From: Candidatus Limnocylindrales bacterium
GTDB lineage: Bacteria; Chloroflexota; Limnocylindria; Limnocylindrales; CSP1-4
NCBI GenBank assembly: GCA_044449585.1
Contig: JBIOID010000001.1
Location: 1-26,391 of the forward strand
Direction of reading: 5' to 3'
DNA: 26,391 nucleotides
Part shown: positions 277 to 22,647 of the stretch, piece by piece
Layout of the letters: the number at the start of each line of letters is the position of its first letter
Position numbering within the stretch: the stretch's first letter is position 1
Program-made: the position numbers and the translations under genes
Notes under the pieces: model-generated
Told to the model about the DNA's origin: nothing
Database searches by the model: none
What the model saw: the letters and a program-made list of their open reading frames with translations, nothing else

Positions 277-3200
277 ATGACGACGTCGTGCGCTGTCTGC
301 GGGGCGGACAATCCGCGGTCCTCGCGGTACTGCGCGGCATGCGGCAGCGCGCTCGGGGCCCACTGCTCGGCGTGCGGTGCGGCGGTCGCTCGCGGCGTGC
401 GGTTCTGCGGCACCTGCGGGGTCGAGGTGGCTCCTCAGCGCGGCCCATCGGCGTCCGCCGTCGCCGATGGGGAGCCGCTGTCGGCGGGAGCAGGCGCCAA
501 GGCGGCCTCCGCCGTCGCCGAGCGACGCCAGGTCTCCGTCCTGTTCGTCGACCTGGTCGGCTTCACCAGTCTCGCCGATGGGCGGGACCCAGAGGAGGTC
601 CGCGAACTCCTGGACCGCTACTTCGCGACGTGCCGGACGCTGATCGTGCGGTATGGCGGCGCCCTCGAGAAGTTCATCGGTGACGCGGTCATGGCCGTCT
701 GGGGCGCACCGATGGCGCACGAGGACGATGCGGAGCGGGCGGTTCGGGCGGCCCTGGACCTCGTGACGGCGGTCGCCGGTCTTGGTGCGGAGCTTGGTCT
801 CCCGAGCCTGGCGGCCCGTGGTGGGGTCGTCACCGGCGAGGCGGCCGTGACCGTCGGTGCCGTCGGCCAGGGGATGGTCGCCGGGGATGTCGTGAACACC
901 GCGTCACGGCTCCAGGGGGCCGCGCGATCAGGCGCGGTGCTGGTGGACGAGGCGACCTATCGGATCGCCCGGGATTCGATCGCCTTCACGCCGGCTGGAG
1001 CGCGCACGCTACGCGGTAAACCGCAAGCCGTTCCGGCGTGGGAGGCGCGGGAGGTGGTGGCCCTCCGGCGCGGTCGGGGCCGCAGCCCACGCCTGGAGGG
1101 CCCGCTGGTGGGGCGCCAGAGCACGCTCGCCATCCTCAAACAGCTCCTCATGGCCGTGCGCGAGGAGCGGACCGTGCGGCTGGTCTCGATCTTCGGGCAG
1201 GCGGGCGTAGGCAAGAGCCGCCTGGTCTGGGAGCTGGAGAAGTACATCGACGGCGTCGTCGAGGGGATCTGGTGGCACCAGGCCAGCTTCCCCGCCTATG
1301 GGGAGGGCCTCGCCTTCTGGCCCCTTGCCGCCATGGTTCGTGCCCGGGCGGGGATCATCGGCGACGAGCGCCCCGACGCAGCACGGCAGCGACTCGCTGC
1401 CTGCCTGGCCCGCTTCGTACCAGACGACGCGGAGCGCCGATGGATCGCGCCGTTCCTGGCGACCCTCGTCGGTCTCGGCCCGCCGACCGACGGCGAGCGG
1501 GAGGAGCAGTTCGCCGCCTGGCGGACCTTCTTCGAGCGGATCGCCGACCAGGGCACCACCGTCCTCGTCTTCGACGACCTGCACTGGGCCGACGCGGGCA
1601 CGCTCGATTTCGTGGACTACCTCATCGAGCGTTCCGCAGCGCGGCCGATCCTGGTCGTCACGGTGGCGCGGCCCGAACTCCTCGAGCGGCGGCCGGACTG
1701 GGGCGTCGGTCGCCGCGGGTACGTCGGCATCAGCCTCGAACCGCTGACCGGGTCGGCGATGACCGAGCTCCTCCTGCGGCTGGCGCCCGGCCTGCCGGCC
1801 GACCTCACCGACCGTATCCTCGCCCGCGCGGAAGGCGTCCCCCTCTACGCTGCGGAGTTCCTGCGCATGCTGGTGGACCGAGGCGATCTCGCCCCCGGCG
1901 TGGGCGGGTACGAGGCCCGCCGCGCCCTCGATCGGCTGGCGGTCCCGGGATCGCTGCACGCGTTGGTCGCGGCCCGCCTCGACGGCCTCGCGCCCGACGA
2001 CCGGGCGCTCCTGCTCGACGCCGCAGTCCTCAACGACCCGTTCCGTCCGGCGGCGCTCGCGGCGGTGGGCGCCACCACCGTCGGAGCGATCGAGCCGGGC
2101 CTGGGCCGCCTCATCCGGCGCGAGATGATCGCCCGCGTCGGGGATGAACGGGCGCGCGATCCGGATCGACTTCGGTTCGTCGAGTGGCTCGTGCGTGACG
2201 TGGCCTACGGGACACTGGCCCTGCGCGACCGGCGGGTCCGTCACCTCGCCGCTGCGGATCACTACGAGTCGCTCGACGATCCCGACGCGAGCGGCGTCAT
2301 CGCCGGCCACGTCCTTGCGGCCTACCGGTCCGGCAGCGGGGGGCGGGGTGATCCGGCGCTCGCGGATCGCGCCGTCGCTGCGCTGCGGACGGCGGCCGAT
2401 CGCGCTTCCGCGCTGCACGCGCCGGAGACGGCGCTCGCGTTCCTCGTGGAGGCGCTCACGGTGGCCACGGACCCCGCGCAGGTCGCCGGCTTGCGCGAGC
2501 ACGCAGCCGCCGCGGCGCATGCGCTCGCGCGGCTGGAGGAGGCGGAGACGTACGCGCGGGCCGCGCTCGACTGGTATCGCGAGCGCAGCGAGGCGGCGGC
2601 GATGGCGCGCACCGCTGCCCGGCTCGGCTCGATCCAGGTCGCCCGCTATGACCCCGGCGCGATCGCCACCATGCGCGGAGTCGTCGAGGAGCTGCGTGAC
2701 GGAGGTGTCGACGGGGGGTTCGCGGTGGCCGACGACCCGGCCGTGGTGGCGCTGCTGGCCGAGCTCGCGCGCGCCTGCCTGGTCAACGGGCGGATGGCGG
2801 AGGCGATCGCCTGGGCTGACCAGGCGCTTGCCGGGGCCGATCGCCTGGGGCTCGTGCAGCTCACCGCCGATGCCATGGCCGGCAAGGGTGCGGCACTCCT
2901 GGAGGAGCGCCGCACCACCGAGGGGATCGCCCTGCTGCGGGCCGCGCTCGTCGTGGCCGAGGATCACGGACTGGTCGTATCGGCGCTGCGGGCGCGCAAC
3001 GGGCTCGCCGTCGGCCTGCTCGCTGATGACCCGAGGGCGGCTCACGCGACGGCTGCGGCCGGGCTGGCGGTGGCCCGTCGCTTCGGGTTCCGCGACCTCG
3101 CCATCCGACTCGCCAGCAACTGGGCGGAGGCGGCGCTCGAGGTCGGTGACTGGGACGACGCGCTCCAGGTGCTGGCCGAGCTCGCCGACGAACGGCTGCC

Positions 3201-11869: not shown

Positions 11870-11908
11870 CGGCCTGTGCAGAGATCCAGGCGCTTCGATG
11901 GCCGTCAC

Positions 11909-13066
11909 ATGGCCCGCCGCGTCGACGGCCCGCGATGGCGCCGCGGTGTCCGGCGGAGGTTCGCGGCGGGCGGAGCAGGCGCCGGCGTCGTCCTCGTCGC
12001 ATTCGCCCTCCTTGGGGGCCAGCGCGCCACGACGCCGAGCAGCGACAGCCTTACCGCCCGCAGCACCGCCCCGCCCGTCCTTTCGACCGCGGTCCCGTCC
12101 GTGGATCTGGCCGCCAGTACGTCGCCGACTTCCACCCGCCCGTCGGCGGCACCCATCGCGAGCGGTGTGTTCGCGGGCGACCTGCTCATCGCCGACCGCG
12201 GGAACGGCCGCATCCTGATCGTCAACGCAGCGGACCAGATCCTCTGGCGCTTCCCGGTCGCCGGCAGTCTGCCGCCCGGACAGACGTTCAGCGCCGACGA
12301 CGCCTTCCTCTCACCGGATGGGCGCACGATCTCCGCCAACGAGGAGATGCGCCAGGTCCTCGTGCGTATCGACATCGCGAGTCGTCGCATCGTCTGGGAA
12401 TACGGCCACTACGGGCGCGCCGGGGCGGGCGCCGGGTACCTCGACACGCCCGACGATGCGTACCCGATGGCGAACGGGGACGTGACCGTGGCCGACATCT
12501 TCAATTGCCGCATCCTTGAGATCGCCCCCGACAAGCAGGTGGTCCGTCAATGGGGCCACACCGGCATCTGTCGCGACGCCCCGCCGTACAGCTACGACCA
12601 GCCCAACGGTGACACCCCGCTGCCGGATGGCGGTCTGCTCATCACCGAGATCCGCGGCTCGCGGGTCGTGCGCCTCGACTCGGCCGGTCGGGTCGTCTTC
12701 GACATCCACGTCCCCGTCAGCTATCCCTCTGATGCGCAGCTCGACGCCGCCGGCAACGTCATCGTCGCGGACTATTCCGCCCCCGGTGCGGTGGTGAAGA
12801 TGTCACCGACTGGCCACCTCCTGTGGCTATACGGCCCGCGAACGGGCCCGGGGCGACTCGATCACCCGAGCCTGGCCGTGCCGCTGCCCGACGGGACGAT
12901 CTTGCTGAACGACGACTTCCGCCACCGCGTGATCATCATCGACCCGCGAACCGACGCTATCGTCTGGCAATACGGTCGCTCAGATGCGCCGGGCCGGTCG
13001 TCTGGACGGCTGAACACGCCCGACGGGATAAACCTTGTGCCAGCGGGCAGCATCGTTGGCATCTGA
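11909..13066 (+). CDS. Membrane-anchored or secreted beta-propeller protein (NHL / PQQ-like / arylsulfotransferase-like repeats), about 385 aa
   Basis: Arg-rich N-terminus, hydrophobic helix and S/T/P linker. About six repeats (ADDAFLSPDG, PDDAYPMANG, PNGDTPLPDG, PSDAQLDAAGN, PSLAVPLPDG, PDGINLVP), each followed by D..R.v.i and ivWqYG strands. Confidence 0.8.
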   Translation: MARRVDGPRWRRGVRRRFAAGGAGAGVVLVAFALLGGQRATTPSSDSLTARSTAPPVLSTAVPSVDLAASTSPTSTRPSAAPIASGVFAGDLLIADRGNGRILIVNAADQILWRFPVAGSLPPGQTFSADDAFLSPDGRTISANEEMRQVLVRIDIASRRIVWEYGHYGRAGAGAGYLDTPDDAYPMANGDVTVADIFNCRILEIAPDKQVVRQWGHTGICRDAPPYSYDQPNGDTPLPDGGLLITEIRGSRVVRLDSAGRVVFDIHVPVSYPSDAQLDAAGNVIVADYSAPGAVVKMSPTGHLLWLYGPRTGPGRLDHPSLAVPLPDGTILLNDDFRHRVIIIDPRTDAIVWQYGRSDAPGRSSGRLNTPDGINLVPAGSIVGI

Positions 13067-13141: not shown

Positions 13142-14113
13142 ATGCTCGCAACCTCGACCGACGCCCGGGCGACCGCGATGAACGGCGTCGCACGTCGCAC
13201 GTGGGCCGCCCTGGGCACGACGTGCACCGTGCTGGTGACCCGGCCGGACCGCCTGGCTCCGGCCTGCGCGGCCGTGGAGGCCGAGCTGGACCTGGTCGAC
13301 GCGACGTACAGCCGGTTCCGCGCGGACTCGGAGTCGACCCGCCTCAACGGATCCGCCGGCCGGCCGACCGTCGTGAGCCCGCTCCTTGGGGAGGCGATCT
13401 CGGCCGCCCTGCAGGCCGCGCGCGTGACGGATGGAGCGGTGGATCCCACGGTCGGGCGAGCGATGCGCGCGATCGGCTACGACACGGACTTCGCCGACCT
13501 GTCCGGACGGGACGTGCCGCTGGTGCTGCGCCTGGAAGCTGTCCCCGGTTGGCGGGCCGTCGGCTTCGACGCCACCCGTCGCCTGCTGACCCTGCCGCAG
13601 GGCGTCGAGCTCGACCTGGGCTCGGTCGGCAAGGCCCTTGCCGCCGATCGGTCGGCGGCAGCGGCGCATCGTGCGATGGGCGCCGGCGGCGTGCTGGTGG
13701 GGCTGGGCGGCGACATCGCCATCGCCGGCCCGACGCCTCGATCGGGTTGGCCCGTGCTGGTCGCCGAAGACAGCCATGCCCCGTCGGATGGGCCGGGTGA
13801 GGTCCTGCGACTGACCGGCGGCGCCATCGCAACCTCGAGCACGACGGTTCGTCGGTGGGCCCAGTCGGGTCTCGCCCGCCACCACCTGGTCGATCCCGCC
13901 ACGGGTGCCCCGGTGGTCACGCCGTGGCGGAGCGCGACGGTGCTCGCCGGTTCGTGCGTGGACGCCAACACGGCCGCGACCGCGGCGATCGTCAAGGCGG
14001 ATCGCGCGGTCGAGTGGCTGGCCCGGATCGGCCTTTCCGCCCGGCTCATCGCCAACGATGGGCGCGTGCTCCGGCTCAACGGCTGGCCGTCCGGCGAGGC
14101 GGTGGCGGCGTGA
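13142..14113 (+). CDS. apbE: FAD:protein FMN transferase (ApbE family), copy A, 323 aa
   Basis: ALGT, SRFRADSE, DPTVG, ELDLGSVGKALAAD, LGGDIA, IATSST and HHLVDPATG motifs. Confidence 0.93.
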   Translation: MLATSTDARATAMNGVARRTWAALGTTCTVLVTRPDRLAPACAAVEAELDLVDATYSRFRADSESTRLNGSAGRPTVVSPLLGEAISAALQAARVTDGAVDPTVGRAMRAIGYDTDFADLSGRDVPLVLRLEAVPGWRAVGFDATRRLLTLPQGVELDLGSVGKALAADRSAAAAHRAMGAGGVLVGLGGDIAIAGPTPRSGWPVLVAEDSHAPSDGPGEVLRLTGGAIATSSTTVRRWAQSGLARHHLVDPATGAPVVTPWRSATVLAGSCVDANTAATAAIVKADRAVEWLARIGLSARLIANDGRVLRLNGWPSGEAVAA

Positions 14114-16700: not shown

Positions 16701-18005
16701 TCAGCGCAGGGGGATCCTGACCGTGAACCGGGCGCCCCCGCCTGGTTCATCGCCGACGACGATGGTGCCCCCATGTCGCTGGGCGACCGTTCGTGCGACG
16801 GCCAGCCCGAGGCCCGTCCCCTCGGCGCGCTCGCGCCGCCCGCCGGCCGCGCGAACGAACGGTTCGAAGATCCGTTCGCGGTCACCGGCAGGGACGCCTG
16901 GCCCCCGATCGCCTACCGATACCCAGCCGAAGCCGCGGTCACGACCCATGTCGACGGTGACCGTCGAGCCGTGGGGCGAATGGCGCGTGGCATTGTCCAG
17001 CAGCACCAGCATGACCTGGAGCAAGCGGTCGGCGTCGCCGCTGATCGGCAGCGCCGGGGGTGGGTCGGCCGCGACGGCCACCGTGCACCCGCGTTCCGCC
17101 CCGAGCGGCGCCACCCGGGCGACGGCGTCGACCGCGATCGCCGCAAGGTCGAGTGGTTCGAGGTGGACGACACTGGGATCGACGCGCGAGACCGACAGGG
17201 CGAGCAGACCCGCCACCAACCGGCTCAGCCGATCGGCTTCGGCCACGATGCCCGTCACGAGGGCCGCGCCCTCGGGTCGCACCAGCGCCTCGCGCTGCAG
17301 CACCTCGCCCGAGGCGTGGATGATGGCCGCCGGGGTGCGCAACTCGTGGGACGCGGCGGCCACGAACCGTCGCTCGGTCGCGAACGCGGCCCGGATCGGG
17401 ACGAGCGCGCGGCCAGTCAGGAGCAGGGCGAGCAGGGCGGCACAGGCCAGGCCGACGAGACCCACGAGGGTCACCGTGCCCACCAGGTCAGACGCCTGCC
17501 GGTCGTGCAGGGTGAGGATGAGACCGGCCTGGACGGCGCCGATCGCGGCCGCCCCGTCGGACGAGGGGATCGCGAGCGTCAGCAGTCGGACCGGCAGCCC
17601 CCCGGCCGTGACCGTGCGCAGATCTGATCCGGCCGCCAATGCGTGCGACAGCGCGGCCCTATCGGGCAGACCTGCCAGCCGGATGCCCCGCGGGTTCTGC
17701 ACCACGTGGCCGGAGGGGTCGAGCACCGTCACGAATGTGTCTGACGAGCCGACCGGCTCGTCGCTGGTCGCCGTCTCGCTGTCGCCGCCGTCAGCCCCGG
17801 GAAGCTGTCCCTCCAGGCCAGTCAGGGCGTTCTGCGCGGTCGACCGCAGGGCGGCGTCCGTCGCGGCGTCGAGCTGGGCCGTGACCACCACGACCGTCGC
17901 GACCCCCATCGCGACCAGCAGAGCGGCGAGCAGACCGAGCGTCAAGAGCGCCAGTCGGCGACGCGTCGAAACGAGCAGGCGCTCGGTGGGATCGCGCACG
18001 GTCAC
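16701..18005 (-). CDS. Sensor histidine kinase (module B), 434 aa
   Basis: Two TM helices, H-box AAASHELRTP, LLDNATRH, DRGPGVP and GTGLGLAV. GTGA overlap with the RR. Confidence 0.95.
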   Translation of the reverse strand: MTVRDPTERLLVSTRRRLALLTLGLLAALLVAMGVATVVVVTAQLDAATDAALRSTAQNALTGLEGQLPGADGGDSETATSDEPVGSSDTFVTVLDPSGHVVQNPRGIRLAGLPDRAALSHALAAGSDLRTVTAGGLPVRLLTLAIPSSDGAAAIGAVQAGLILTLHDRQASDLVGTVTLVGLVGLACAALLALLLTGRALVPIRAAFATERRFVAAASHELRTPAAIIHASGEVLQREALVRPEGAALVTGIVAEADRLSRLVAGLLALSVSRVDPSVVHLEPLDLAAIAVDAVARVAPLGAERGCTVAVAADPPPALPISGDADRLLQVMLVLLDNATRHSPHGSTVTVDMGRDRGFGWVSVGDRGPGVPAGDRERIFEPFVRAAGGRRERAEGTGLGLAVARTVAQRHGGTIVVGDEPGGGARFTVRIPLR

Positions 18006-18673
18006 GCCTCACTGAGCGTATAGCCGACACCGCGCACGGTGCGCAGTCGCCGGCCACGGCCGAGCGTCGCCAGCTTCCGGCGAAGGTAGGAGACGTACAG
18101 GTCGACGACGTTCGAGTAGACGTCCGGCTCGGCGCCCCACACCGCATCGAGGATCTGGCGACGACTCAGCACGCGCCCCGCGTTGCGGATGAGGTACGCG
18201 AGCAAGGCGAACTCACGCGCCGTCAGCTCGACGCTGGCGTCGCCGACGCGGGCGACGTGGCGTTGCTGATCCAGCTCGATGTCGCCGGCCACCAACCGTT
18301 CCTCGGCGGTCGCGACCGGCCGCCGGCCGAGTGCACGAAGTCGCGCCAGGAGCTCGGCGAAGGCGAACGGCTTGGTCAGGTAATCATCTGCCCCGGCGTC
18401 GAGGCCGACGACCCGCTGCTCGACCGAGCCGAGGGCCGTCAGCATGAGCACGGGCGTCCGATCGCCGCGTCCGCGCAGGAGCTGGAGCACCTCGGTACCA
18501 TCCAGGTCGGGCAGCATGCGGTCGAGGACGATGGCGTCGTAGCCGCCGTTGCCAGCCAGCGCCAGCCCTGCCACCGCGTCCTCGGCGAGGTCGACCCCGA
18601 AGCGCTCAGCGACCAGCACCCGGCGGATCAATTCCCCCATCCGGGGCTCATCCTCGACGATCAGGACACGCAT
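18002..18673 (-). CDS. OmpR-family response regulator (module B), 223 aa
   Basis: MRVLIVEDE, VLDRMLPD, LMLTALG, GADDYLTKPF, VVDLYVSYLRRKL and TVRGVGY. Confidence 0.95.
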   Translation of the reverse strand: MRVLIVEDEPRMGELIRRVLVAERFGVDLAEDAVAGLALAGNGGYDAIVLDRMLPDLDGTEVLQLLRGRGDRTPVLMLTALGSVEQRVVGLDAGADDYLTKPFAFAELLARLRALGRRPVATAEERLVAGDIELDQQRHVARVGDASVELTAREFALLAYLIRNAGRVLSRRQILDAVWGAEPDVYSNVVDLYVSYLRRKLATLGRGRRLRTVRGVGYTLSEA

Positions 18674-18758
18674 CACCTCATCGTTGGGAGCTGGCGCCGG
18701 GCGGTCAACGTCCGAACGGCCCCTTTTCGGGGGAGCGTCCGGTCACCTGGGCGAGCGT

Positions 18759-19622
18759 TCACGCCGCCCGCGGTGCGCCCACGGCGACGGGCCAGTAGTT
18801 CTCGACGATGATGGCGGCGGTGGGGAAGCCGCATGCCACCAGGGCCGCCGTTGCCGCGGTGATCGCTTCAGGGTTGCCGCAGAGATAGGCGATCGTGCGG
18901 TCCGGGTCGACCGCTGATCGTTCGCAGACGCTGGCCAGGATCCCGTCGATGCGCCCGGTCAGGCCGGTCCACTCGCGGTTGTCGGGGTGCGCGGGTCGCG
19001 AGACCACCGGGATGTAGCGCAGCCGGGGATCGGTCTCGGCCCGACGCGCGAGCTCGTCCCGATACGCCAGTTCCGCCACGTAGGCGACGCCGTGGACGAC
19101 CACGGCGCTGGGCCGGATGCCACCGTCGGGCACGGACAGGACCGTCTCGAGCATCGAGCGCATGGGCGCCAGGCCCGTACCGGTCGCGATGAAGAGGTGC
19201 GCACGAGGATCCTGGGAGCGCAGGACGAAGAGGCCCTTGGGCTTCCCGATGCGGACGCGGGCGCCGACCGGCAATGTCCAAAGCCGCGGCGTCAGCGCGC
19301 CGCTCGCGACGCGCCGGATCAGGAACTCGAGGCTTTTGGACGGGCCCGGCACCGACGCGGTCGAGTAGGGCCGTTGCAGCAGATGGCCGTCGAGCAGCAG
19401 GCCAAGCGCGAGGTATTGACCGGGCTCGAAACGCGGGACGCCATCGTCCGGCCTGATCCAGAAGCGAGCGACGGATGGTGTGAGATCGACCCGGCGGACC
19501 AGCGTGGCATTCGGGACAGCGGCCCCCACCGCCGCGGCTCGGGTGGTGACTCCGCCGATGGCGTGCACGGGTTCGTCCCACGCACCGGCAGCGTCCCTCG
19601 TGACCATCGCCTCGACGCTCAT
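18759..19622 (-). CDS. Ferredoxin-NAD(P)+ reductase-like FAD/NAD(P)-binding oxidoreductase, 287 aa
   Basis: FEPGQY, RPYST (FAD), GALT, IATGTGLAPM, YLCGNP and ENYW. The ATG at 19622 overlaps the ferredoxin stop (ATGA). Confidence 0.92.
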   Translation of the reverse strand: MSVEAMVTRDAAGAWDEPVHAIGGVTTRAAAVGAAVPNATLVRRVDLTPSVARFWIRPDDGVPRFEPGQYLALGLLLDGHLLQRPYSTASVPGPSKSLEFLIRRVASGALTPRLWTLPVGARVRIGKPKGLFVLRSQDPRAHLFIATGTGLAPMRSMLETVLSVPDGGIRPSAVVVHGVAYVAELAYRDELARRAETDPRLRYIPVVSRPAHPDNREWTGLTGRIDGILASVCERSAVDPDRTIAYLCGNPEAITAATAALVACGFPTAAIIVENYWPVAVGAPRAA

Positions 19623-19909
19623 GCGGCGGGCATCAGGGCGTCGACGGCGGCGCGCGCGGCGTCGGGGTCCCGGTAGAACGACGCCTCGACGCGCGCGTAG
19701 GCGGCCCACTCGGCCGGTAGCGCATCGATGCGGAAGATGGCGCCATTGGGACACGCCGCTTCGCACGATCCACAGTCGATGCACCCGCCCGGGTCGACGT
19801 AGAACTTGCGGTCGATGTCAGGGTCGGCGCTGATGCAGTCGACCGGGCAGACGGCCACGCAGGACTGGTCCATATGATCGATGCACGGTTCGGCGATGAC
19901 GTAGGCCAT
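19619..19909 (-). CDS. fdxA: 7Fe (3Fe-4S + 4Fe-4S) FdxA-type ferredoxin, 96 aa
   Basis: MAYVIAEPCIDHMDQSCVAVCPVDCI...CIDCGSCEAACP with a C-terminal helical extension. RBS AAGGAGG. Confidence 0.9.
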   Translation of the reverse strand: MAYVIAEPCIDHMDQSCVAVCPVDCISADPDIDRKFYVDPGGCIDCGSCEAACPNGAIFRIDALPAEWAAYARVEASFYRDPDAARAAVDALMPAA

Positions 19910-19921
19910 GGTGGGACCTCC

Positions 19922-20674
19922 TTACACGGGATGAGCGGCGGACGCCAGGCGCGGCTGCGCAAGGGCGATGACCACCCGGTAGACGAAGAAGAAGACGACG
20001 AGGGCGCACGGCACCAGGTACGACCAATACGCCCAACCGGCGCCGCTGTCCGATCCGGACGCGATGCCGTGGGCGGTGACCCCCAGGAAGCCGGCGAAGG
20101 TCAGGTAGTGGATGAGGCGCCAGGCGCGCTGCCCGATCCGGCGGCGCACGTAGAAGCTGCCCGTCACGATGGCGATGACATAGAACGCCAGCTGGCCGAT
20201 GCCGACCGCGACCGGCGCATAGGGCGACGCGAACGGCACGGCGATGGCGACAGGTGTGAACGCATACGTGTGGTCGCCCAGGAGCAGGAGCCCGTGCAGC
20301 GCCGACAACGCCAGCCCGACCAGCGCCAGGTCCTTGTGCAGGGCGAAGCTCACCGGTCGATGGGCGATCCGGTCAAGGAGCTTGGTCGAGAGCAGCAGGC
20401 CGTAGGTGACCGACCCGGCCACCGCGAAGTAGGCCAGGAAGCCGGTGGCACGCACGGCATACCAGGCGATGTTGGCCGGCGTGATGGCGGCCGCCGTCGC
20501 CAGTGTCGACAGCGCGCCAGGCAGCGTCGCTCCGATGACGATGCCGAGCATGGCGCCGTAGGTGAGCGCGACCGCGACCGCCACTGGGCGCGGGAGCCCG
20601 CGATAGACCGGGACGCGGGCTGCGGCTCGGCCGGCCGGTGCGCCGGTGCTCGTTGCGGGGGTGGGCGGGGGCAT
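19922..20674 (-). CDS. Ferric-reductase-like / MsrQ-like di-heme b membrane cytochrome, copy B, about 250 aa
   Basis: WYAVRATG, His pairs LHKDLALVGLALSALH (i, i+14) and IHYLTFAGFLGVTAH (i, i+13), and GIASGSD. It has an extra N-terminal TM compared with copy A. Confidence 0.9.
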   Translation of the reverse strand: MPPPTPATSTGAPAGRAAARVPVYRGLPRPVAVAVALTYGAMLGIVIGATLPGALSTLATAAAITPANIAWYAVRATGFLAYFAVAGSVTYGLLLSTKLLDRIAHRPVSFALHKDLALVGLALSALHGLLLLGDHTYAFTPVAIAVPFASPYAPVAVGIGQLAFYVIAIVTGSFYVRRRIGQRAWRLIHYLTFAGFLGVTAHGIASGSDSGAGWAYWSYLVPCALVVFFFVYRVVIALAQPRLASAAHPV

Positions 20675-20687
20675 CTCGCGACTCGCT

Positions 20688-21659
20688 CTAGGCCGCAAGG
20701 AGCGCCAGCGTGCCGGGCAGGGCCAACGTCTCGTGACGCTCGGTCAGGATGACCGCCCCGTCCACACCCGCCCGTTCGAGCCGGGTGAGTCCGTCGTGGG
20801 AGCCGGCGATGACGGTCGCCTTCGCGAACGCCTCGGCCTGCAGCGCGGTCGCACAGATGACGGTGGCCTGGATGATGTCCGTGACTGCCGGCTGACGCGT
20901 GCGCGGATCGATGAGATGGTGACGGACGCGGCCGTCACGGTGCCAGCGGTGGACGGACGTACCCGATGTCGCCACGCCCCAGCGGCTCGGCCACCCGTCG
21001 TCCTGGGCATCGAGATGGAGGATGGCCAGGGTCGCTTCGGCGGCACGCGGGTCGTCGACGGCCACCTCCCAGCGCTGCCCCGAAGCGCCCCGTATCGCGA
21101 GGTCGCCATCGGCGTCGATCACGACGCTCGGCCACGAGGTGAGGAGGGCAAGGGCACGGTCGGCGAGCCAACCCTTGGCGATGCCGCCGAGGTCGAACCG
21201 CAGGCCCGCCGGCCGCTGCACGACCGCTCCGCGGCGCAGATCGGGCGTGACCGACCAGCGACCGGAAGCCGGCCCATGCGAACGGGCAGCGAGCAGCCCC
21301 TCGGCCGCCAACCGCTCGTCGAGCAGGGTGACGTCGACGAGGCCGTCGCCCAGGCGCTGAGCCGAGGCCCCGGCGGCCAAGGCCGCTGCGAGGGTCGGCC
21401 CGACGAGCACCTCCGAACCCGGCGCCGCGTTGAGCCGGGACAGTTCGGACGTGTCGAGGTGCCGGCTCAGGCGGTCACCCCAGTGGCACATCCGGGCCAG
21501 CACCCGCTGGGCATCACGACCGGCGCGTACCGCATCGGTCGACGCGATGTGGACCGCGAGCCGGCCACCCATGGCCGACGTCGTCTCCGAGATCGGGGCG
21601 ATCGGCTCGCGGATCGAACCGTGACGCGTCTTGGTCGCTCGAGGATGAGCCGATCCCAT
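20688..21659 (-). CDS. apbE: FAD:protein FMN transferase (ApbE family), copy B, 323 aa
   Basis: AMGG, LSRHLDTSELSRLN, FDLGGIAKGWLAD, DADGDL, GVATSGT and HHLIDPRT. The ATG at 21659 overlaps the upstream stop (TGATG). Confidence 0.93.
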   Translation of the reverse strand: MGSAHPRATKTRHGSIREPIAPISETTSAMGGRLAVHIASTDAVRAGRDAQRVLARMCHWGDRLSRHLDTSELSRLNAAPGSEVLVGPTLAAALAAGASAQRLGDGLVDVTLLDERLAAEGLLAARSHGPASGRWSVTPDLRRGAVVQRPAGLRFDLGGIAKGWLADRALALLTSWPSVVIDADGDLAIRGASGQRWEVAVDDPRAAEATLAILHLDAQDDGWPSRWGVATSGTSVHRWHRDGRVRHHLIDPRTRQPAVTDIIQATVICATALQAEAFAKATVIAGSHDGLTRLERAGVDGAVILTERHETLALPGTLALLAA

Positions 21660-22030
21660 CACGGGATCACCTTGCCGGACTGGGTCGTGCGCACCACCAC
21701 GGTCCTCTGGGCGGGTGCGGGTACGCGCGTCACGATCGTGATCGGGCGTGGTGCCTGGGCATCGATGACCGTCGCGCCCGGGGGCGGGGACTGGCCCGGC
21801 GCCAGCTGGACATACTGGATCGGCGTTTGCTGGGTGAGCGTGGCCGAGGTGGCGGACGTCGACCCAGGTGCGGTCGCTGCCGCGGAGGGAGGGACCACGA
21901 TGGCCGCGACGAGGGCCGACAGCGCCGCCGCCCCCGCCATGCCGACGGCGATGCGCAGTTGCGTCGGGTCCGGCCGCGCGGCGGTCGGCCGTACGGGCCG
22001 TGTCGGGGGGATCACCGGTCGCGTGTCCAT
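21659..22030 (-). CDS. Small single-TM Pro/Thr-rich protein ending VRTTQSGKVIP, 123 aa
   Basis: One hydrophobic helix IAVGMAGAAALSALVAAIVV. TGATG overlaps with both neighbours, indicating translational coupling. Confidence 0.78.
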   Translation of the reverse strand: MDTRPVIPPTRPVRPTAARPDPTQLRIAVGMAGAAALSALVAAIVVPPSAAATAPGSTSATSATLTQQTPIQYVQLAPGQSPPPGATVIDAQAPRPITIVTRVPAPAQRTVVVRTTQSGKVIP

Positions 22031-22356
22031 CAGCCGCCGCCGTCCTGCCCGTCGTCCCCGGGCTCACCGCCGGCGCCGGCCACCACGACGTGGACCACCT
22101 TCGGGGGGGCCGCGGGCGCCGCCTGCGTGACGTTGATGACCTGGGGCGGAGGCGCCGGCCGGACGTATACCAATTGCGGTGCCACCGACCCACCCGCGCT
22201 CGAAGGCGATGTCCCGTCCCCGACGGATCCGATCAGACCAGCCGACGGGGACGATGACGTCGCCTGGGAGCCGTGGGCGAGCCCGGCGCCGCCGACCGTC
22301 GCGACCACGGCGACAGTGGCCACGATCAGGGCGATGCGGTGAGCGGAGATGTCCAT
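22030..22356 (-). CDS. Small signal-peptide/TM protein with a Ser/Pro-rich body and a Gly/Asp tail, 108 aa
   Basis: MDISAHRIALIVATVAVVATVGGAGLA..., RBS AGAGGAAG, -10-like TAGCTT (22405-22400) and a TGATG overlap with the next gene. Confidence 0.75.
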   Translation of the reverse strand: MDISAHRIALIVATVAVVATVGGAGLAHGSQATSSSPSAGLIGSVGDGTSPSSAGGSVAPQLVYVRPAPPPQVINVTQAAPAAPPKVVHVVVAGAGGEPGDDGQDGGG

Positions 22357-22647
22357 GCGGTAGCTTCCTCTATTCGGCCGCGAGCCCGGCTTCACGAAGA
22401 AGCTAGTCGTCCAACCTGTGTCGCCACCTTGGACGAACGTGAGAAGACGCTCATGGGATGTGCTCGCCACTCGGAGGTCAGGGTCTGCCATGTGCCGACC
22501 CGCCTCTCAGGTAGTCAGAGGCCTGGCCGCGCCGGAAGGTTTCGGCGCACTTGGCGATACGCCCCACGTGACGGCGGCGATCGAGGCGCCGACAAAGCCC
22601 TCGCCCACGACTCGGTCGCCAGGCTCCGACCTGCTGGCGTGCGAGGA

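Follow-up and report, generated by a model that had tools for sequence, protein, structure and literature searches.

The window analysed here, a stretch of 26,391 nucleotides from a Candidatus Limnocylindrales bacterium of the phylum Chloroflexota, contains a predicted operon that lies entirely on the reverse strand and begins with two small genes, T1 (22030..22356, 108 aa; companion gene) and T2 (21659..22030, 123 aa; tether and candidate FMN carrier). These are followed by the flavin transferase gene apbE-B (20688..21659, 323 aa), assigned by a PF02424 match (E 1e-39) and by PDB alignments; a gene for an MsrQ-like or ferric reductase-like membrane cytochrome (19922..20698; PF01794), in which His121, His135, His197 and His210 are candidate haem ligands; genes for a 4Fe-4S dicluster ferredoxin (19619..19909; domain match) and a ferredoxin-NAD(P)+ reductase-like flavoprotein (FNR; 18759..19619; PF00970 and PF00175); and, at the end of the operon, a two-component pair consisting of an OmpR-type response regulator and a sensor kinase (16701..18676). 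The T1/T2 and T2/apbE-B junctions both have the sequence TGATG, with a one-base overlap of stop and start, as the initial annotation had read them. Of 60 loci, 38 have a spacing of -1 between the T1 stop and the T2 start, and 10 have a spacing of +1. A scan for a sigma-70 promoter or a terminator 5' of T1 returned none.

ApbE-B was searched against 400 genomes of the class (a tally that includes the unpublished G154, G196 and G272, on which we make no claim), and 64 loci were fetched around the strongest matches. The T1-T2-apbE order is kept in about 60 relatives: T2 is present in 61 and T1 in 60 of the 64 loci, and the loci that lack either gene are those at contig ends (L025 and L083, and L064 for T1) and the divergent L082. 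Of 137 genomes sampled from this family of soil and freshwater bacteria, about 60 contain the module, and in a single-protein search the nearest loci in named records were Chloroflexota MAGs. The MsrQ-like gene lies beside apbE, on its 3' side, in 63 of the 64 loci; a ferredoxin gene occurs nearby in at least 30, an FNR gene in at least 17 and a NuoF-like gene in at least 5, all lower bounds from regions of about 8 kb. Response-regulator-like and sensor-kinase-like gene clusters are found near 42 and 38 related loci, respectively. The 4Fe-4S dicluster ferredoxin is likely to be the cytoplasmic electron donor. Among individual loci, L023 contains two T2-apbE-msrQ modules in tandem and a VIT1/CCC1 iron transporter gene (L023:7713-8597) immediately 5' of T1, and L026 encodes, 5' of T1, what by eye appears to be a P-type heavy-metal ATPase with a C-terminal hemerythrin-like domain. 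Elsewhere in the window, a gene for a β-propeller protein (PQQ_2/NHL-like) with an N-terminal hydrophobic segment (11876-13066) is located 5' of a second flavin transferase gene, apbE-A (13142-14113).

Conserved features of T1 and T2

Both short open reading frames, which the initial annotation had called as genes, hold up as such, given their conservation in 60 and 61 of the 64 loci, the T1 ribosome-binding site and the pattern of nucleotide substitution. The likely ribosome-binding site of T1, AGAGGA (22366..22371), lies 10-15 nt before the ATG at 22356, and T1 homologues share this start Met. The start at 22491 chosen by the ORF finder (153 aa) was rejected: it would add a 45-codon extension with a GC3 of 0.67, compared to 0.86. 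Against 10 close homologues, base differences at codon positions 1, 2 and 3 amount to 0.45, 0.32 and 0.53 in T1 and to 0.35, 0.21 and 0.53 in T2, and in both genes approximately half of the identical residues differ in codon; the minimum at position 2 together with the codon swaps indicates that T1 and T2 are under selection at the protein level. Neither protein matches a Pfam family, T2 has no meaningful match in NCBIfam, and the ESM Atlas returns only unnamed clusters, mostly from Chloroflexota. In the literature that we searched, neither the T-x-Q-S-G motif described below nor the T1/T2 family was reported.

T2 consists of a basic N-terminus, an RPDP-x-x-x-R stretch with a transmembrane (TM) helix, a linker, a YVQLxPGQxxPPGAxV segment, basic C-terminal strands and a terminal motif. 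The TM helix (residues 26-46; 21893..21955) is supported by charge bias and by the AlphaFold model, in which a helix of about residues 22-45 is the only element predicted (pTM 0.25) and the strands are absent. Within the segment Tyr73-Ile89 (21764..21814), Leu76, Pro78, Gly79 and Pro83 are nearly invariant. The terminal motif is Thr115-Thr-Gln-Ser118-Gly119 (21674..21688). Alignment of syntenic homologues, which the initial annotation had proposed as the way to find an invariant Ser or Thr, singles out Ser118: in 61 syntenic T2 proteins, Ser118 and Gly119 are present in all, Thr115 in 60 (with one Ser) and Gln117 in 57. An HMM search of 1.84 billion representative sequences yielded 248 T2-like proteins. 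Among the best 150 of these, all with E<1e-3 to a profile built without the motif, 139 end in [T/S]-x-x-S-G located no more than 5 residues from the C-terminus, and the other 11 are truncated, frameshifted, unrelated repeat proteins or, in two cases, KQSA variants. In 200 motif-bearing T2 sequences, taking the Ser as position 0, position -3 is Thr in 194 and Ser in 6, position -1 is Gln in 194, and positions 0 and +1 are Ser and Gly throughout. Codons vary at every motif position and the spacing to apbE is variable; the varied codons point to constraint on the protein rather than on the ribosome-binding site of apbE, and we accordingly rejected the possibility that the motif is a by-product of that site. 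An apparent T2-ApbE fusion, P0001 (L170:1044-2405), was discarded: in the one metagenome contig that contains it, a frameshift of a single base hides TTQSG and a stop codon in another frame. P0131 and P0152 likewise look like frameshifted read-throughs.

The strands and candidate attachment motifs that had been pointed out in the two proteins are all present, and neither protein contains [S/T]GA[S/T]. Among the candidates, TTQSG alone stands: STSATSAT sits in the variable linker of T2, PGAT occurs in 46 of 208 T2 sequences with its Thr kept in 36%, and SAGGS-like strings occur in 2 of 180 T1 homologues. The canonical D-x-x-[S/T]-G-A-[S/T] motif is found in 0 of 61 syntenic T2 proteins, 1 of the 150 database matches and 0 of 60 syntenic T1 proteins.

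In T1, a TM helix (residues 7-29, 22270..22338; mean KD 2.25, N-side charge +1.3) with conserved Arg7 and Gly29 is followed by a Pro/Ala/Thr linker and the LVYVRP motif (residues 62-67, 22156..22173), located by alignment. The V-Y-V-x-P core of this motif is the only strongly conserved element outside the membrane, with Tyr64 present in 179 of 180 homologues. The protein ends in an acidic Gly/Asp tail (22033..22068): across the family the last 20 residues carry a mean net charge of -5, and the last 25 include one to four His residues in 53 of 59 sequences, whereas the last 55 residues of T2 average +5. There is no invariant Ser or Thr among the 180 T1 homologues, and the best extramembrane column has Thr in 157 of them but Leu in the window protein. 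The contrast between the invariant tail of T2 and the lack of an invariant Ser or Thr in T1 makes T2, and not T1, the acceptor candidate, so that the suggestion that these small tethers replace an FMN_bind acceptor survives for T2 but not for T1. The T1 family shows no PepSY domain (PF03413), and hhalign comparison of its post-TM part with PepSY companions from other Chloroflexota stays at the level of shuffled sequences; the notion that T1 is a reduced PepSY protein, which has no profile support past the TM helix, was therefore dropped, leaving a positional analogy only. Given that T1 is laid out like the proteins in this companion slot and that its acidic, usually His-containing tail contrasts with the basic C-terminal part of T2, we read it as a conserved acidic-tailed accessory subunit rather than a second flavin carrier. 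The tail probably captures metal near the flavin, or else interacts with or positions the basic C-terminal half of T2.

The probable acceptor register and the ApbE-B enzyme

We sampled ApbE loci across the phylum and compared 53 tethers encoded beside other Chloroflexota ApbEs. Where the metal motif of the enzyme is the canonical ADxxST, the neighbour is an FMN_bind-type protein, and 6 of 12 loci of this kind yielded a D-x-x-[S/T]-G-A-T motif. The genes for ApbEs with ANxAxT or AExxAK mostly come immediately after that for a single-TM tether ending in SGAS, TGAS, SGGS, SRGS, SGVS or TRSS(R). In these 53 tails, position -3 is Ser or Thr in 48, position -2 is Gly or Arg in 44, and the last Ser is present in all 53, partly by selection of the set. 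The corresponding positions of the T2 family are T, R/T/K, Q, S and G, and the TRSS(R) tails nearly match TRQSG. The resulting gradation of tails among Chloroflexota tethers, from TGAS through SGGS and TRSS(R) to TxQSG, places Ser118 (21677-21679), the predicted FMN acceptor, in the canonical acceptor position; FMN is joined to the last Ser or Thr of the canonical motif (PMC12052999). ApbE accepts 7-residue tags, best at protein termini, and single substitutions of the canonical Asp, Gly or Ala cut flavinylation, to about 50% in the case of Gly and Ala (PMC12052999); T2 lacks all three of these residues, which counts against its flavinylation. On balance, the T-x-Q-S-G tail is probably a new variant of the flavin-attachment site. 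A second copy of the tether of module A, the apbE-A module, is encoded on contig C15 of the same genome (about 2040-2400, reverse strand); it is 41% identical and ends in TSGGS.

ApbE-B retains the catalytic Ser232 and His248, as do all aligned sequences. Glu276 and Lys280 replace the Mg-binding Asp and Thr (Glu in 64 of 64 clade members, Lys in 63 of 64), which in the Treponema pallidum ApbE are Asp284 and Thr288 of the second Mg site (PMC5655446). We found no report in the literature on the activity of an ApbE with Glu and Lys at this site. This Glu/Lys combination is widespread in Chloroflexota and is found next to canonical SGAS or TGAS tails as well (L087, L092), so that it probably does not signify decay. 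Two further substitutions are specific to the clade: 65 of 65 aligned members have Asp184, which lies in the GGD loop, and His237, whereas 77 of 77 other ApbEs have Gly and Arg. By PDB alignment, His237 occupies the position of Arg262 of FmnB, an active-site residue (PMC12052999). These changes fit an altered peptide specificity and, taken together with the TTQSG tail of T2, make probable the earlier proposal that ApbE-B may recognise a different motif. ApbE-B-type enzymes form their own clade (SH-aLRT 100) in a quick IQ-TREE analysis of 92 rows, midpoint-rooted and with about 70% of L021-L081 randomly dropped; the tree backs the grouping, but no sequence of events can be read from it. Because the co-variation of motif and enzyme comes from this one clade, it counts as a single event and not as statistical proof.

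At least four ApbEs, which fall into three types, are encoded in the genome. In ApbE-A, the triad/Mg Asp is replaced by Asn (ANTAAT), which makes a third type of metal site, and ApbE-A-type enzymes form a clade of their own, often accompanied by NuoF-like proteins and ferredoxin and by SGGS tails. On contig C19 (6296-9096; L171, L174), an FMN_bind protein with D-T-V-S-G-A-T is encoded near an ApbE with ADxxAT; this PF04205 match is the only FMN_bind found in the genome and stands beside a different, canonical ApbE. A further ApbE fragment (AEVWSK) is on contig C21.

Topology, proposed electron route and alternatives

By hydropathy, ApbE-B has no signal peptide, and 141 of 143 Chloroflexota ApbEs have no hydrophobic N-terminus. 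T2 has a signal-anchor-like helix and is predicted to be oriented N-in/C-out, with a charge of +3.1 on the N-terminal and -0.8 on the C-terminal side of the helix. A conserved twin-Arg motif is not apparent, RR being present in only 11 of 61 T2 and 8 of 59 T1 sequences; TatC was found in 5 of 5 relatives and was not found in this genome, which is 66% complete. The simplest conceivable route is one in which ApbE-B would load the tail in the cytoplasm and the short tail would then be exported. Some MsrQ-like proteins of Limnocylindria that accompany another ApbE subtype (L085-L100) possess one more TM helix and, at the C-terminus, a β-rich extracytoplasmic domain.

In the mechanism that we favor, T2 would be a domain-less, membrane-anchored FMN carrier, and ApbE-B would move FMN from FAD to Ser118 in the T-x-Q-S-G tail of T2; this tail would be the form taken in Limnocylindria by the [S/T]-x-x-S tail acceptors that occur across Chloroflexota. 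Electrons would pass from NAD(P)H via FNR, or a NuoF-like protein, to ferredoxin, then across the predicted di-haem MsrQ-like protein to the tail FMN, and from there to an acceptor outside the cytoplasm, which may be a metal such as Fe(III). T1 would be a co-translated accessory subunit that is not itself flavinylated. We consider it reasonably probable that T2 is flavinylated at Ser118 and has its function on the outside of the cell. A bolder version, to which we give rather little credence, holds that ApbE-B and T2 form an orthogonal enzyme-tag pair: the enzyme, located in the cytoplasm and with an active site rewired by Asp184, His237 and the Lys at the second Mg site, would flavinylate T-x-Q-S-G only and not the SGGS of module A, the loaded tail would be exported, and an obligatory T1 would present metal to FMN with its tail or supply in trans the acidic residue that the motif lacks.

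A different reading of the same tail, which seems to us unlikely, is that it serves as a docking or pseudo-substrate peptide and that ApbE-B is a non-covalent FAD-binding redox partner that T2 holds at the membrane. The S-G of T2 would then be aligned with the S-G of D-x-x-S-G-A-T, the acceptor position having been lost, and this register would account for an invariant S-G followed, two residues after the Gly, by Pro, Val or nothing, for the 11 of 139 T2 tails that end exactly at SG, and for the homologue P0040 that ends in a full SGAT; the altered Mg ligands of ApbE-B would fit as well. However, the first register pairs the Thr at -3 and the Arg at -2 with the same residues of the TRSS(R) tails, the Glu/Lys site also accompanies canonical tails, and no aligned sequence has lost the catalytic Ser or His.

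Also unlikely, and somewhat more so, is the possibility that T2 is flavinylated but that its tail acts on the cytoplasmic side, as an arm swinging between ferredoxin or FNR and the inner haem. Such an arrangement would explain why ApbE-B has no signal peptide and T2 no Tat motif, and it would suit an MsrQ-like protein without a fused FAD/NAD domain; cytoplasmic ApbEs do exist (PMC12052999). The positive-inside rule, however, places the Arg-rich N-terminus of T2 inside and the tail outside (+3.1 versus -0.8). Moreover, PepSY, a domain that is typically extracytoplasmic, is present in the companions encoded by related operons.

It is improbable that Thr115 rather than Ser118 is the acceptor: Thr is found there in 194 of 200 sequences and ApbEs prefer Thr (PMC12052999), but position -3 is also Ser or Thr in canonical motifs, where it is not modified, and it is the last Ser that is C-terminal and invariant in related tails (53 of 53, partly by selection). 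Least of all do we credit the claim that T1 and T2 are distant paralogues and both acceptors, despite their similar layouts (TM helix, linker, YV strand) and an hhalign match of 87.5%, because that match spans the TM helix and linker, drops with fuller alignments to 63%, close to the 60% for T1 against module-A-type tethers, and vanishes outside the TM region (strand regions score 15.8, against 14.8 for reversed T1), and because T1 shows no invariant Ser or Thr, Leu in its best column here, and few SAGGS-like strings. Complex prediction for T1 (1-96) with T2 (18-123), run with alignments, scored 0.02 and gives no evidence either way.

Relationship to known flavinylation systems

Compared to the canonical D-x-x-[S/T]-G-A-[S/T] motif and the 7-residue flavin-tag (PMC12052999), the T2 tail shares the terminal location, the Ser or Thr at -3 and the Ser at position 0; it differs in lacking the Asp at -6, in having R/T/K at -2 where the canonical motif has Gly and Gln at -1 where that motif has Ala, and in the invariant Gly after the Ser. 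What this analysis adds is the TxQSG variant, the matching changes in ApbE-B, and the finding that T1, like three of the four candidate motifs, drops out as an acceptor. Should T-x-Q-S-G prove to be flavinylated, the recognition code of ApbE would extend beyond D-x-x-[S/T]-G-A-[S/T]. Two different ApbE/tail pairs adjoin in one genome, which makes specificity directly testable and might provide orthogonal flavin-tags for labelling. The question is thereby sharpened to how an ApbE with no signal peptide loads a tail that is predicted to lie outside the cell.

A close parallel is provided by the TRSS(R) tethers of the Chloroflexia/Anaerolineae type (L112, L119, L129, L134, L136, L146), which share the order of companion, tether, apbE with a Glu/Lys Mg site, and MsrQ-like gene. 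Their companions, in the slot of T1, have a TM helix and an Asp/Glu/His-rich tail, like T1, but carry PepSY, unlike T1, and T1 has no profile similarity to them past the TM helix. We found no characterisation of this tether/PepSY-companion system in the literature searched. In the FMN_red proteins described by Huang et al. 2024 (PMC11334425), the flavinylation site is located on a disordered C-terminal extension, as is proposed for T2; however, they possess a flavin-binding domain and were found through flavinylation motif-like sequences, whereas T2 has no folded domain.

At the level of the operon, the module resembles the MsrQ-like clusters of Meheust et al. 2021 (eLife, PMC8238504), which are recognised by a PF01794 gene no more than 5 genes from apbE, as is the case here. 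Both have apbE beside a PF01794 di-haem protein and an NAD(P)H-linked cytoplasmic donor, either an FNR-type NAD-binding domain or a NuoF-like protein. An iron-reduction role has been proposed for some of these clusters (PMC8238504), and the VIT1 gene 5' of T1 in one related locus is in line with such a role and is a further point of likeness. An FMN acceptor normally belongs to an MsrQ-like cluster (PMC8238504); typical ones are FMN_bind (PF04205), DUF2271 or DUF3570, none of which is present in T1 or T2. Clusters passed the published pipeline only if a target gene had a predicted signal peptide, so that those with a signal-less ApbE were probably filtered out, and the survey described [S/T]GA[S/T]-like sites alone (PMC8238504); ApbE substrate surveys that rely on this motif and on signal peptides would miss the module described here. 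In contrast to those clusters, the acceptor candidate in this module is a disordered T-x-Q-S-G tail, the donor is a separate ferredoxin together with FNR, and there is an extra companion gene, T1, whose product has an acidic tail.
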